DNA of 32,000 nt, taken from the NCBI GenBank assembly GCA_030668875.1, contig DAOVER010000008.1, forward strand, positions 57,004-89,003. The letters are read 5' to 3'. Of the stretch, positions 2,409-6,765 are shown piece after piece. Each line of letters starts with the position of its first letter. The stretch's first letter is position 1. The position numbers and the translations under genes are program-made. The notes beneath the pieces were generated by a model. That model made no database searches and had not been told where the DNA came from. It saw only the letters and a program-made list of their open reading frames with translations. This DNA comes from Candidatus Heimdallarchaeota archaeon. Lineage in GTDB: Archaea > Asgardarchaeota > Heimdallarchaeia > Heimdallarchaeales > Heimdallarchaeaceae.

Positions 2409-2612
2409 GAGAGTAGAGACATATTAAAAAAACATTATTATTAAAAAACAAAAAAAAGGGAGAGACCCTCACTCCGCTCCCGGAATAAAGGGGCCAAAAG
2501 ACCCAAAAGTAAATAAGATTAATTTGACTGAGAAACTTCTACTTCATTCTTAGAACTAGCTAAGAACTCGAAATTTGCGCGAATATCTAGATCTAAATAA
2601 TAATAGACGCTG
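2409..2612. repeat. Direct repeat copy 1 (204 bp): last codons of the LRR gene, intergenic/terminator region and 3' end of the wHTH gene
   Basis: Aligns by eye to 6560-6765. Identical blocks: 31 bp (2409-2439), 40 bp (2477-2516) and 57 bp (2519-2575), then 6 substitutions in 2576-2606. Confidence 0.95.
2519..2612 (-). pseudogene. Orphan 3' fragment (30 codons + stop) of the wHTH regulator gene at 6672-6950
   Basis: Translates to SVYYYLDLDIRANFEFLASSKNEVEVSQSN*, identical to the C-terminus of the intact gene. Homology ends abruptly at 2612, and no matching 5' part lies upstream. Confidence 0.9.
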
Positions 2613-2619
2613 GAAAAGA

Positions 2620-2671
2620 GGAGCTAGCTTCTAAAAAATTTTGGCGATTCTTTGGTAATAATACTAGCTCC
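2620..2671. repeat. Inverted-repeat pair GGAGCTAG-N36-CTAGCTCC
   Basis: GGAGCTAG at 2620-2627 and CTAGCTCC at 2664-2671. The right arm extends to CTAGCTCCAATT. Confidence 0.7.
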
Positions 2672-2987
2672 AATTAATACACATGGTTGTTTATATTAAC
2701 ATTTTCTCAAGAGGTAAAAAAACTCAAAACATTTGCTTCATATATGATATACGAGCTGCTAGAAGGAAGGAGTTATGACGAAGCACTGTTGAATATATGA
2801 TACTAGTTAGAGAACCTCCAGCTAATTCAAGAAAAAAACTATAACTAACTAAATTGTAGAGATAATGACAAAGAAACTTCTGTAAGAAAAAAGGAAGAAA
2901 AGAAAATAATTGTAATTTATGCATTATTCTCTAGTACCAATTTTTTTCGAAAAGAGGTAAACTATTTAATGAAAAAGGAGAAAAATG

Positions 2988-3054
2988 ATTGGAGCTAGCA
3001 TTAAGTTTCATTTGATTAACCTATCAACAAGGAATTTGTTTTGCTAGCTCCAAT
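2988..3054. repeat. Inverted-repeat pair ATTGGAGCTAGCA-N41-TGCTAGCTCCAAT (long imperfect hairpin)
   Basis: Perfect 13-bp arms at 2988-3000 and 3042-3054. The interior can pair further (TTGAT/ATCAA at 3012-3016/3023-3027, plus a G-U-containing stem). Confidence 0.85.
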
Positions 3055-3135
3055 TTAAGATTATTTCAAAGATACAATTTTTCTTCAGTTTCCTCTACCC
3101 TTCAATGTTTTTTCCTGAGAATACAACTAATTTGT

Positions 3136-4014: not shown

Positions 4015-5256
4015 TTACCACCATTCGAACCAAGTATAAGAAATCTCATCATCGTACATAGGATCTTGGAGTGGGTGTGCATTTTCTGTTTGTGTTTCTG
4101 CATAAGTATATGAGCTAAAATCGCTATACCCTTGACTGATTCTTGAGAAGAAATAGTGTTCAAAACAAGGTTCACAATTAGGGATGTTCTGAGTATATGG
4201 GTAGGAATCATGGTCATGATCTGTTGTAGATATGATGAATCGATTTGATCCCTCAAGATCATCAACAAATCCGCCACATTCGCAAGAACCTACTAGAACA
4301 AAGATATTCTCAGATTCAAGGTAACCCAAGTAAGTAGCAAAATCACTAGAGTACATCAGATCAGGGTCACCAGGATCAGCAGGATCTTGCATTCGACAGT
4401 AAGAATCATCTTCCTCTTCATCATAATTTCCATGTGTCATAATGTGTATGAAGACGAAATCATCCGAGTTCTCTATGCTATCCAGATATATCATATTTAT
4501 TCGCCAACTAGAAGTATTTTCATAGTACAATATTGTGCCAAATCCCTCTTCTTCTTCCAATTGGTCACCGTAAATTGAGATATAGTCGTAAGTTATAGCA
4601 TCTGTAGCATAGAAGAATACAGCAATTTTGTCTACTGTAGTATCTGCAATTCTAAAAGTAGTATAAGTCGTTTGCTCATCACAATTCATGGTAATATAGT
4701 GTGTTTCATAATCTGTTTTCTCTGCTTGAATCTTGCAGTAAAGGTTTTCTTGCACGTCTTCGGAAAAAGAATAGTAACCATTAACGTTTGTTGTACCTGA
4801 TTCTAAGACTGCACTGTCACTTATTCTAATCAATTTGACAGTTGCACTTGATAAAGCATCACCTACATGGTCATAAACATGGCCATTACAGGTTTGAGTT
4901 ATTTCCCATTCGATATCAAAATAAGTGGGAGTACTAGGATAAAGGTAAGTATCTCGATAAATGGTAGTATATCCACCTTTCTCAACTTTAATTGTACAGG
5001 GAATGGTGGAGGTTAATAAATCTCGTAATATAACCAAGTAGTCTCCATTTGCATCCGTATAATCTGTGTCTTCTACTACATCATCAACAATCAAACTCAC
5101 TAAGGCGTTATTAACAGCTGTACTGTCACAAGTGACGGTTCCAGAAACATTTGCACCCAAGGCTTGTACGCCATTAATTTGACTAAGTGTCATAAAAGAC
5201 AAAAGCACAAGTGCTACAATAGCACCAATTCGTATATTTTTATTATTAGTTTTCAT
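4015..5256 (-). CDS. Secreted clan-CD (C13/caspase-fold) cysteine peptidase-like protein with two N-terminal carboxypeptidase-regulatory-like beta-sandwich domains
   Basis: Signal peptide, then two repeats of the V.G.V....A.V.L.....TD/TN.NG.Y.....K..Y pattern. The C-terminal domain has FIHIMTHG (His) and VLVGSCECGGF (Cys), followed by RFIISTT and a QDP motif near the end. Confidence 0.65.
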   Translation of the reverse strand: MKTNNKNIRIGAIVALVLLSFMTLSQINGVQALGANVSGTVTCDSTAVNNALVSLIVDDVVEDTDYTDANGDYLVILRDLLTSTIPCTIKVEKGGYTTIYRDTYLYPSTPTYFDIEWEITQTCNGHVYDHVGDALSSATVKLIRISDSAVLESGTTNVNGYYSFSEDVQENLYCKIQAEKTDYETHYITMNCDEQTTYTTFRIADTTVDKIAVFFYATDAITYDYISIYGDQLEEEEGFGTILYYENTSSWRINMIYLDSIENSDDFVFIHIMTHGNYDEEEDDSYCRMQDPADPGDPDLMYSSDFATYLGYLESENIFVLVGSCECGGFVDDLEGSNRFIISTTDHDHDSYPYTQNIPNCEPCFEHYFFSRISQGYSDFSSYTYAETQTENAHPLQDPMYDDEISYTWFEWW

Positions 5257-5519
5257 TTAATTACCTATCATTAGTTTTGATTCATTTACTGAATCATATC
5301 AACTTAACAGATAAAGAATATAAGCAGAATCTATTTGTCTCAAAAAGGTATTTTCTACATGAAAAAATACAAATAACTAACTAAATTGGAAAAAAGCAGT
5401 GTTAAAAAAACTTCTGAAAGAAATAGTGAAGAATGTTATCAGCCACGCCATCACAAAAGTACCTGATAGTCGGTTGATAACCTCTTTCTGTGGACTATTA
5501 AAAAAATAAGAAAAAGATT

Positions 5520-5852
5520 GTGCTCAATTTAAGAACAGAGGAGAACATAAAACAATTTCTAGAGAAAAAAATAATGTTGCCTAGCATATTCTTAGCCGGG
5601 AAAGATATGGTGGTAAATGACGTGATGAGCTCGAATGTAGCAAAATTGATGAAAGATGCAGTGTTGAGTTGGAAAGAGATAAATGAGTTCGAGATGCTGA
5701 CAAGGATAATGGGAACAAAGGAAGCATATGAGAAGGTGTTTGGAGAAAAATATAGTTATAACCCGACAAAGGTAAAGAAACAATATTGGTTCACAAATTG
5801 GATAAAGGTGTTTGCAGGATACTCGTTTATGGATTCGAAAACGGATACTTAA
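5520..5852 (+). CDS. Hypothetical protein (possibly a gene remnant)
   Basis: 110-aa ORF with a GTG start and protein-like composition, co-oriented with the LRR gene. No recognisable motif. Confidence 0.45.
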   Translation: MLNLRTEENIKQFLEKKIMLPSIFLAGKDMVVNDVMSSNVAKLMKDAVLSWKEINEFEMLTRIMGTKEAYEKVFGEKYSYNPTKVKKQYWFTNWIKVFAGYSFMDSKTDT

Positions 5853-5941
5853 GCGAGTTTCTAATGAAATTCATCTTCATTCCATCCTTTCATCATAAAG
5901 ATATGCTTTTATTTCTGTATGACTAATAGGTTGATATAAGA

Positions 5942-6595
5942 ATGATGGTTGAGTTTAAAGGCATTCGAAAATCTGGAGAGACGTATAAACAAGAGTACAA
6001 GCATTCATCAAAGGTAGCCATTTTTAGTGAACAAGAACTTCAAAGTATTGATTTGTCAAATTTGAAACATATGTATAGATTGAATTCTTTATCGATCTGC
6101 AAAAATAATTTTGTATCAATTGACCTGTCATCTATAGGTTACTGCAGTACTGTAGAATATGTTTCTCTTTCAGATAACGAGTTTACAGACATTGAACTTG
6201 AACCACTCAAGTATCTCTATAACTTGAATACACTGTCACTATACGATTGTAGACTTAAAACAATCAATCTACAACCATTGGAACATTGTACAAGTTTACA
6301 AACTCTTTACCTTATGGATAATAAACTTGAAAAAATTGATTTGAGACCTTTGCGCAAATGTAAAAACCTTCAGAATCTCTATATTCATAATAATCTATTG
6401 ACTGATGTAGATTTATCTCCATTGACCACTAGCTACAAATTAAGACATCTTTATCTTGCTTCTAACAGAATTTCTAATATAGATTTAAAACCATTAAAAA
6501 GACTAATAAGATTGGAAAAACTAACTCTTTATTGGAATCCTTTAGAAAAGATGGATAGAGAGAGTAGAGACATATTAAAAAAACATTATTGTTAA
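5942..6595 (+). CDS. Leucine-rich repeat protein
   Basis: About 7 repeats of ~24 aa with consensus IDL.PL..C..L..L.L..N.L.., ending in an NPL cap. Confidence 0.9.
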   Translation: MMVEFKGIRKSGETYKQEYKHSSKVAIFSEQELQSIDLSNLKHMYRLNSLSICKNNFVSIDLSSIGYCSTVEYVSLSDNEFTDIELEPLKYLYNLNTLSLYDCRLKTINLQPLEHCTSLQTLYLMDNKLEKIDLRPLRKCKNLQNLYIHNNLLTDVDLSPLTTSYKLRHLYLASNRISNIDLKPLKRLIRLEKLTLYWNPLEKMDRESRDILKKHYC

Positions 6596-6765
6596 AAAAA
6601 TAGAAAAAAGGAAAAAAATCCCTCTCCATCTCCCGGAATAAAGGGGCCAAAAGACCCAAAAGTAAATAAACTTAATTTGACTGAGAAACTTCTACTTCAT
6701 TCTTAGAACTAGCTAAGAACTCGAAATTCGCACGAATATCTAAATCGAGATAATAATATACGCTG
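6560..6765. repeat. Direct repeat copy 2 (206 bp), overlapping the convergent 3' ends of the LRR and wHTH genes
   Basis: Matches 2409-2612 (see copy 1). Confidence 0.95.
6596..6671 (-). terminator. Putative terminator region between the convergent LRR and wHTH genes
   Basis: On the minus strand, a GGGTC-TTTT-GGCCC mini-hairpin (6644-6657; also 2491-2504 in copy 1) is followed by long T tracts. Confidence 0.4.

Follow-up and report, generated by a model that had tools for sequence, protein, structure and literature searches.

A recurrent insertion site at the 3' end of a winged-helix regulator gene in a Heimdall-group archaeal genus

Introduction

Integrative islands that target the 3' end of a tRNA or protein gene, as those of the SSV and pNOB8 types do in Archaea, comprise cargo bracketed by direct repeats and leave the target gene intact; they start at a fixed position within the gene, place the displaced 3' end on the far side, and correspond to empty sites in relatives. 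Here, we describe a locus that shares most of these features, and possibly the fixed start, in a 32,000-nucleotide (nt) stretch of DNA (hereafter, the window) from the metagenome-assembled genome (MAG) of a Candidatus Heimdallarchaeota archaeon (GenBank assembly GCA_030668875.1, contig DAOVER010000008.1, positions 57,004 to 89,003 of the forward strand), where accessory genes are bracketed by two copies of the 3' end of a gene encoding a winged-helix (wHTH) regulator. The locus differs from gene-3'-end integrative islands in that no integrase is present in or beside the islands and none is detectable in the genome, that the target is a regulator gene rather than a tRNA gene, that the repeats are 157-407 nt long and diverged, and that the cargo comprises two to approximately 10 ordinary genes without a replication or transfer module.

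Other systems offer partial parallels. In bacterial pangenome hotspots and defense islands, as here, one interval between core genes harbors accessory or defense genes that vary from species to species and is mostly empty. Many core-gene hotspots lack recognizable mobile-element genes, and their turnover is thought to proceed via homologous recombination in the flanks. Such an exchange, by double crossover in the flanks, would not duplicate a gene end, however, whereas at the locus described here a specific 3'-end unit occurs twice in several lineages and has a common breakpoint. IMEX, which depend on the host Xer/dif system, are likewise integrase-free islands with direct repeats of a chromosomal site and additive stacking, but the tyrosine recombinase family PF00589 was not detected in the genome under study no dif-like 28-bp site was identified, although no search aimed at the motif was made, and the repeats are ~10-fold longer. 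Integron arrays resemble the locus in that small or promoter-less cassettes are added at one site, with a structured repeat after each cassette and the older cassettes distal. Unlike in integrons, the neighbors here are a 139-amino-acid (aa) membrane protein and an NAD kinase, with no IntI-like integrase adjoining, and the repeat is a gene 3' end with its terminator rather than attC, present in at most two copies per genome.

Elements already described in the same group of organisms, namely HeimV1 and HeimV2, HeimM1 and HeimM2, and the aloposons of Heimdallarchaeum, are also integrated accessory DNA; these span tens of kilobases (kb), contain an integrase or giant genes, and integrate at tRNA genes (Wu et al., 2022; PMC8813620). 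No mention of direct repeats, insertion hotspots, or target sites was found in the text of that study. The architecture of the present locus is that of a gene-3'-end-targeting island minus its defining integrase, and combines hotspot behavior with the duplicated gene end that hotspots normally lack. We know of no such site described so far in the Heimdall-group lineage. Sequence comparisons lend good support to the view that the gap between the wHTH gene and the hyp123 and Ras-like GTPase genes is a recurrent insertion site in this genus, that the repeat is a signature of insertions that preserve the regulator, and that the repeat copies recombine with each other.

Materials and Methods

The genome under study (G000; 3.23 Mb, 99 contigs, 92% complete) contains the window at G000:C91:57004-89003. 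Positions refer to the window, and negative coordinates (e.g., -1533) denote positions left of the window start on contig C91. The genus set comprised 24 genomes, which are G000 and 23 relatives. The nearest relatives of G000 are MAGs labelled Candidatus Heimdallarchaeota archaeon; the close relatives G016 and G021 share about 88-92% nucleotide identity with G000, and its more distant relatives include Ca. Heimdallarchaeum aukensis and Ca. H. endolithica, both with closed genomes. The repeated unit, R, was defined as the wHTH 3' end from codon 64/65, the stop codon, the hairpin/T-rich terminator, and a short stretch past it. Within the accessory DNA, module A denotes the outer layer (-1533 to 2412) and the inner block denotes positions 2613-6559.

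Results and Discussion

A Duplicated Gene 3' End Brackets Accessory Genes

A repeat search and MAFFT alignment delineated a direct repeat comprising copy 1 (c1; 2409-2612, 204 nt) and copy 2 (c2; 6560-6765, 206 nt), exactly where a first-pass annotation made from the sequence alone had placed it. Global alignment of the two copies yielded 186 matches over 207 columns (89.9%), with 17 mismatches and four gap columns, and the longest exact run was 57 nt. The search of the whole genome that the annotation had recommended was conducted by BLAST and detected only two copies in 3.23 Mb, both at this locus, which rules out the repeat as a multi-copy element.

The second copy is in use. It comprises the last 36 nt of a leucine-rich repeat (LRR) protein gene, a 76-nt spacer, and the stop codon and last 31 codons of the intact wHTH gene (6672-6959, minus strand; 95 aa), the product of which has weak Pfam matches to Penicillinase_R, MarR, and HTH_24. 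The first copy is an orphan with no gene body on either side, and comprises the last 11 codons and stop of the LRR gene (2409-2444, plus strand; the translation reads ESRDILKKHY(Y) followed by a stop), a terminator spacer (2445-2518), and the final 30-31 wHTH codons with their stop (2519-2612, minus strand). Its wHTH portion encodes 30 residues that are identical to those of c2 (SVYYYLDLDIRANFEFLASSKNEVEVSQSN, followed by a stop). Thus, the annotated reading, in which an intact regulator gene runs into c2 while an orphan of its last 30 codons, together with the end of the LRR gene, sits in c1, was borne out. Six nucleotide differences separate the coding portions of the two copies and all six are silent; the probability that six random substitutions would all be silent is 4e-05. 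Collectively, these data show that one copy of R completes a working wHTH gene and that the other persists as a relic without function.

The spacer contains, in the sense orientation of wHTH, the hairpin GGGTC-TTTT-GGCCC followed by T-runs. Because compensatory changes keep the pairing in other species (GGAGTC/GGCTCC in G019 and GGGTC/GACCC in L076), the hairpin would fit a 3'-end or terminator-like structure. Homology between the copies ends at 2409/6560 and at 2612/6765, and the interior of the inner block is without an adjoining paralog. The locus does not have the form of a tandem segmental duplication, since homology halts at the repeat edges and a tblastx search of 2600-3140 matched nothing. 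The window is without tRNA genes, and Rfam gave no match across positions 1-9000.

A further putative hairpin spans the left repeat edge, where purine- and pyrimidine-rich arms pair in most copies and species; the arms are low-complexity GAGAG/CTCTC runs. Within the wHTH gene itself, a 5-7-bp palindrome at the F-L...E-E codons (6695-6714 and 2542-2561) is present in most species, with differing sequences. This palindrome, at codons 80-88 (TTCTTAG-N6-CTAAGAA here), was rejected as a recombination core, since the FL..EE residues alone yield such palindromes. Its summed stem length was 124 versus 99 +/- 5 under synonymous resampling across all 23 sequences, and this excess vanished when one representative per lineage was considered (Fisher p = 0.19).

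Empty and Occupied Sites Among Relatives

The wHTH gene is highly conserved across the genus (mean column identity of 83%), with orthologs at 82-100% identity in 21 of the 23 same-genus genomes searched. Approximately 22 related species or populations have an empty site, in which 100-180 nt separate the wHTH stop codon from hyp123, the first gene of a left flank that continues with a Ras-like GTPase, hyp215, and a PIG-L deacetylase. The right flank, which encodes the 139-aa membrane protein and the NAD kinase (7352-8953, plus strand), is syntenic in nearly all relatives. In G000 the native left flank ends at -1533. Because G016:C117 and G021:C70 join this position directly to the terminator and wHTH gene (-1533 joined to 6604), G000 has 8.1 kb of DNA that these close relatives lack. 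The wHTH gene of G021:C70 (L039:5545-5832) has an in-frame TAG at the codon for Gln37, and the same MAG has the empty site. In Ca. H. aukensis and Ca. H. endolithica (L052 and L058, from closed genomes), an inverted hyp215/PIG-L pair separates wHTH from hyp123/Ras, and the NAD kinase and 139-aa protein genes are not upstream of wHTH; the neighborhood is rearranged in that branch.

Other cargo occupies the gap in at least five lineages besides G000. The non-empty gaps, which hold unrelated cargo, measure 8.1 kb in G000, 1.8 kb in G010, 2.6 kb in G019, 12.5 kb in G001, 0.7 kb in L059, and 2.4 kb in L076. The order in G019 (L036/L060) is native flank, orphan R (terminator and 29-30 codons), a 219-aa membrane-anchored protein, an S8 protease, and the terminator with the intact wHTH gene. 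Its repeat is 157-171 nt long with 87-94% identity, the island spans 2.4 kb, and the orphan is flush with the native flank (copy on G019:C45). L076, a JGI contig, carries the two cargo genes of G019 with the same proximal junction. Since this cargo and junction are kept and only the last 35-40 nt of the distal R remain, the orphan of L076 appears to be undergoing deletion.

The largest occupied gap, on a 701-kb contig of G001, has a 407-nt repeat (87.5% identity) with copies 9.68 kb apart, made up of 300 nt of an LRR gene 3' end, the terminator, and ~13 wHTH codons. The island encodes the defense system Pycsar (PycTM, 1.3e-25; PycC, 1.8e-48) and a viperin-like radical-SAM fragment, which lie at L020:2578-5074 (G001:C1, about 338.6-341.1 kb), together with a NosD beta-helix protein and homologs of hyp110 and the LRR protein; an extra 2.5 kb that separates the distal copy from hyp123 encodes two proteins of the 219-aa family. 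Proteins of this family (215-235 aa, with a signal-like segment at the N-terminus and a membrane anchor at the C-terminus) occur in 1-4 copies in 13 of the 23 genus relatives searched. The family serves as cargo in G019 (L036:2586-3245), L076, and G001 (C1:334435-335055 and 336066-336671), twice beside an S8 protease. The gap of G010 encodes a membrane-anchored protein of 445 aa and retains a decayed remnant of an LRR 3' end, with no long repeat, and that of L059 has no repeat. The distal repeat copies of both G000 and G001 hold an LRR 3' fragment. The LRR remnants in G010 and G001 fit the repeated rounds of cassette turnover that had been suggested for G000.

A 34-aa C-terminal query across the 24-genome set identified a second copy that is unexplained by a contig break in G000, G019, and G021 only; the second match in G005 is a 127-nt contig overlap. 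A protein-guided metagenome scan identified four loci only. The initial proposal of an insertion hotspot largely stands as regards the pattern, since the gap is variable among relatives, empty in most, and filled in G019 and G001 with other cargo and a second wHTH 3' end, while the mechanism offered with it stays conjectural.

Breakpoints, Age, and Gene Conversion

On the sense strand, the orphan of G019 starts at ...CTGTATCTACA/G AGA AGT GT... and the orphan of G021:C371 starts at ...CCTCTTTTCCA/G AGA TCT GT..., with the slash placed at the start. From that G onward, the two orphans are identical to the AGA-type wHTH alleles of G022 and G016, respectively. G019 and the G021:C371/G000 lineage agree on the exact start nucleotide (codon 64/65), with differing flanks and cargo, and may share it by ancestry. 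The orphan on C371 is 98% identical to the G016 gene; the G016 and G021 MAGs are from the same sample, and either could own the orphan.

In G000, c1 is one codon shorter than the C371 orphan, with which it shares the flank TGGAAAAGAGGAGCTAGC..., part of a palindrome-ended element described below. A 28-nt decayed trace lies beside the same palindrome element on G010:C13 (E = 2e-4). Because the junction between c1 and the island is common to G021:C371 and, in decayed form, to G010:C13, it predates the split of these species, which shows that the island did not arrive in one recent insertion.

In their coding part, the two copies in G000 are mutual nearest relatives (93.6%). In the terminator part, c2 is 87-89% identical to G010 and G021:C70 versus 75% to c1. 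The codon for Ser66 is AGC in both c1 and c2, whereas it is TCN in G010, G016, G021:C70, and C371. Since c1 and c2 share AGC against TCN in close relatives, the simplest reading of these alignments is gene conversion between the copies within the G000 lineage, which would also account for differences that are silent only. Of the six silent differences, three are derived in c2, two match polymorphisms of G016-type alleles, and one is private to c1. The notion that the orphan is a foreign functional allele, as silent-only differences could imply, was rejected given that only one of the six is private to c1 and that the AGC codon is common to both copies.

Recombinases and Candidate Mechanisms

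Pfam searches of all open reading frames (ORFs) in the islands of G000, G019, and G001 identified no recombinase or integrase family, as had been noted for the window from the sequence alone. Tyrosine recombinases (PF00589, which would include Xer-type enzymes) were not detected in G000, which is 92% complete, although all 14 control genomes matched; within the genus set they occur in only 12 of 24 genomes, G019 and G001 among them. Five serine-recombinase matches (PF00239) in G000 are all on other contigs and appear to belong to repeated IS607-like elements. Of the hallmarks of gene-3'-end integrative elements, direct repeats that include the target 3' end are present in G000 (and also in G019 and G001), as is an empty attB with both flanks, and an integrase within the element is absent from all three islands. 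The mechanism would be either homology-driven recombination or a trans-acting site-specific recombinase.

We favor, with moderate confidence, the explanation that the gap between wHTH and hyp123/Ras-like GTPase is a recurrent insertion site where the R bracket arises from homology-driven recombination between R copies. The most likely process would be homologous recombination between R copies by the host machinery with no island-borne integrase. Incoming DNA with its own R would recombine with the chromosomal R, such that wHTH stays whole and the resident R is displaced to the far side. This could involve Campbell-type integration of circles that arise via looping-out between two R copies, along with gene conversion between copies. 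The relic R would later erode by deletion, and insertion sequence (IS) insertion and microhomology joins would remodel the cargo. The outcome would be a site at which cassettes for secreted and membrane proteins, and in one species defense genes, can be added and exchanged. Homologous recombination is favored because of the length of R, the visible recombination between its copies, and the lack of an integrase; repeats of 157-407 nt with mosaic identity, whose copies recombine with each other, are also what Campbell-type integration would leave.

Several observations weigh against homology-driven recombination as a full account. The common orphan start nucleotide in G019 and G021:C371/G000 is not predicted by random homologous or illegitimate events, and points to a possible site-specific cut or a single ancient founder. 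The repeat of G001 ends at a different codon (~78), c1 in G000 is joined to module A and does not adjoin the native flank, and the gaps of G010, L059, and L076 are filled without a long repeat (L076 keeps 35-40 nt). The junction of orphan and hairpin also recurs at places other than the wHTH locus, in both G010 and G021/G016, and therefore the history is more tangled than one integration. Finally, R core patterns gave zero hits in two scans of viral contigs and one scan of a JGI metagenome, which revealed no circular intermediate or R-bearing free element.

An alternative that we entertain tentatively is that R is an attachment site and that wHTH is cut inside codon 64/65 by a recombinase whose gene lies elsewhere or was once present on the elements themselves. 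The elements would carry the wHTH 3' end from the cut onward, in the manner of tRNA-targeting islands, and the present islands would be integrase-less remnants or would be mobilized in trans. Such an enzyme would explain why the identity block starts at the same nucleotide (...CA/G AGA...) in two lineages and ends variably downstream of the gene; a fixed start in the gene with a variable downstream end is the classic pattern of integrases that target 3' ends. The alternation of empty and filled sites among close relatives, as well as the tyrosine recombinases in half of the genus genomes (G019 and G001 included), are also consistent with this alternative. Yet no integrase lies in or beside the three bracketed islands, PF00589 was not detected in G000, and the repeats are long and only 87-94% identical. 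The G001 boundary is again at a different codon, the scans found no viral or plasmid-like contig with R, and known Heimdallarchaeum elements use tRNA genes (PMC8813620). The shared breakpoint is the main argument for a trans-acting site-specific enzyme, and a single founder event could explain it equally.

More doubtful is a static scar without mobility, in which old illegitimate rearrangements (microhomology joins, IS-mediated deletions, or partial duplication of the LRR-wHTH module) left a gene fragment that proximity gene conversion keeps young-looking, and in which the gap varies only because the intergenic space from a terminator to the following promoter is permissive. The junction of module A and c1 is indeed a GAGA microhomology join beside a truncated IS end, the junction of c1 and the island is common to three or four species and hence old, gene conversion is evident, filled sites without long repeats exist, and an LRR 3' fragment is present in the distal copy of both G000 and G001. 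A scar leaves unexplained, however, the second R in three lineages with unrelated cargo, the shared breakpoint, and the G019 orphan that sits flush with the native flank as an element-displaced 3' end would. Moreover, most species are precisely empty, an outcome that is easy to reach via deletion between two R copies and hard to reach via random decay. A static scar, like the assembly artifact considered next, is less likely than either homologous recombination or a site-specific enzyme.

Assembly Support

Logan per-run contigs from two sediment samples that are a possible source of the genome cover 1-2438 and 2546-6589 with zero differences. The junctions between module A and c1, between c1 and the island, and between the LRR gene and c2 were each confirmed in independent per-run assemblies. 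Contigs assembled at k = 31 break only in the near-identical core, and linkage through the core rests on the original assembler. These contigs, in which the core collapses, display neither an empty-site joint nor a circle joint, which counts neither for nor against such forms. Sequencing depth was 22.4 for module A, 22.5 for the island, and 22.2 for the right flank in sample X1, and 33, 33.5, and 44.5, respectively, in sample X2. A contig from an unrelated cold-seep study (X5; ~95% identity) spans 2512-3189 and thus the junction of c1 and the island, and the same run also contains the empty-site junction at 6604. The assemblies of relatives break inside wHTH with exact k-mer overlaps, at the end of C93 and start of C60 in G005 (127-nt overlap) and at the ends of C117 and C227 in G016 (55 nt), which hints at strain-level branching of the assembly graph at the locus.

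It is very improbable that the contig wrongly joins two co-occurring strains via the 57-nt core, or that the 4.15-kb block is a separate circle: although the source is a sediment MAG in which related strains co-occur, depth in X2 rises right of the gene relative to the island, the core is not resolved at k = 31, and several relatives break inside wHTH, private variants flank the core in each of the two copies and the core does not reach the length of a read, depth is near-equal between island and flanks in the two samples (22.4/22.5/22.2 and 33/33.5), the junction of c1 and the island recurs in the unrelated study and in G021:C371, and the same architecture is present on the 701-kb contig of G001 and on G019:C45.

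Genes and Layers of the Accessory Region

The bracketed block of ~4 kb, which had been taken for the whole island, is only the inner half of the accessory DNA in G000, since this spans 8.1 kb (-1533 to 6603) in two layers and c1 borders module A instead of the native flank. The first gene of module A encodes a right-handed beta-helix (NosD-like) protein of 565 aa that starts at -1255, with its 3' end at 1-442 of the window (plus strand; Pfam Beta_helix, 4.5e-38; NosD, 5.4e-31). The second encodes an S8 subtilase with TSP3 repeats (439-2226, minus strand; Peptidase_S8, 2e-33; TSP3_bac) that is split into ORFs at 439-1677 and 1813-2226 by a single in-frame stop at 1813-1815. The gene aligns in one frame over 659 residues to an intact 653-aa ortholog on G021:C200, and the stop marks a pseudogene within the accessory DNA unless it stems from a sequencing error. 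Module A is complete with the same ends in a different context on G021:C200, its bounds having been determined from BLASTN against that contig and the empty sites of G016 and G021.

An exact 27-nt repeat around the beta-helix and S8 pair is due to the truncated left end of an IS with an rve/DDE transposase. One truncated left end lies at 2326-2390 (plus strand) and matches the first 57-62 nt of full copies, and a second remnant of 27 nt lies at -1364 to -1338 (G000:C91:55640-55666), such that module A sits between two truncated IS left ends in the same orientation. Full copies of ~1005 nt (C22:9517-10521, C15:~1-1004, and C68:~55733-56737 in G000) have terminal inverted repeats TGTTAACTCC..GAGTTAACA, a ~16-nt target duplication, and an HTH-rve transposase (Pfam rve, 1.8e-15). 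The join between module A and c1 falls within the LRR 3' remnant, at a GAGA microhomology. Terminal inverted repeats, a short target duplication, and a transposase are all absent from the bracketed block (2613-6559), which by these features is not a transposon or composite IS.

The inner block contains a first palindrome-ended element, GGAGCTAGC...GCTAGCTCC (2621-2675), that starts 8 nt from the truncation point of the orphan; a second element with GGAGCTAGC palindrome ends lies at 2988-3058, as identified from sequence and a genome-wide motif count. The element and a conserved promoter-like stretch downstream recur at unrelated loci (G000:C88:4463, G010:C13:63-179, and G016:C4:44864-44973), and it may be a small RNA gene, a MITE, or a recombination site. 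On G000:C88 it lies ~150 nt downstream of a 71-aa wHTH paralog that ends just past a shared DMRSVFY motif. No protein-level remnant was detected in 2613-3135, and tblastx searches for pseudogene remnants in 2600-3140, 5250-5530, and 2227-2420 revealed the IS end only.

Four cargo genes follow, and Pfam agreed with the labels of the first-pass annotation, weakly for the methyltransferase and the peptidase and strongly for the LRR protein. They encode a 251-aa, multi-pass membrane methyltransferase that is PEMT/ICMT-like (3136-3891, minus strand; PEMT, 8e-4, under the curated cut-off), a secreted 413-aa protein with CarboxypepD_reg and C13/legumain-like (clan CD) domains (4015-5256, minus strand; 2e-10 and, for Peptidase_C13, 2.2e-4, just under the cut-off), hyp110, a 110-aa protein of no family (5520-5852, plus strand; no Pfam or PADLOC match), and the 217-aa LRR protein, which is convergent with wHTH (5942-6595, plus strand; LRR_4, 1.3e-20; LRR_8, 4.3e-18). 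The methyltransferase has 4-5 paralogs elsewhere in G000 and is paired with the C13-like gene on G021:C333 as well, where the C13-like protein is 75% identical; the latter is present in 7 of the 23 genus relatives searched. Homologs of hyp110 (45% identity) and of the LRR protein (47% identity) lie side by side at the same position in G001. PADLOC identified no defense family among the four cargo genes of the window. The suggestion that the site collects surface and secreted proteins agrees with cargo that is mostly secreted or membrane proteins, to which G001 adds a defense system.

Conclusion

Asgard archaea are the closest prokaryotic relatives of eukaryotes, and little is known of how they gain and exchange genes. 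The Asgard elements described to date are large and target tRNA genes, whereas the locus described here is a compact and comparatively well-sampled natural experiment, and offers a concrete site for tests in enrichment cultures. It is rather unlikely, though conceivable, that the wHTH 3' end and terminator form a reusable attachment unit that is cut or recombined at one nucleotide by an unrecognized host or trans-acting enzyme. If so, packets of surface-protein and defense genes would be added, stacked, swapped, and lost at this site, which would constitute a functional counterpart, in Archaea, of integron or IMEX systems. If the breakpoint is a defined cut, its known target sequence provides a means to look for a new recombination activity. 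Otherwise, the locus would record how cassettes turn over via homology and how gene conversion proceeds in an archaeal lineage prone to polyploidy.

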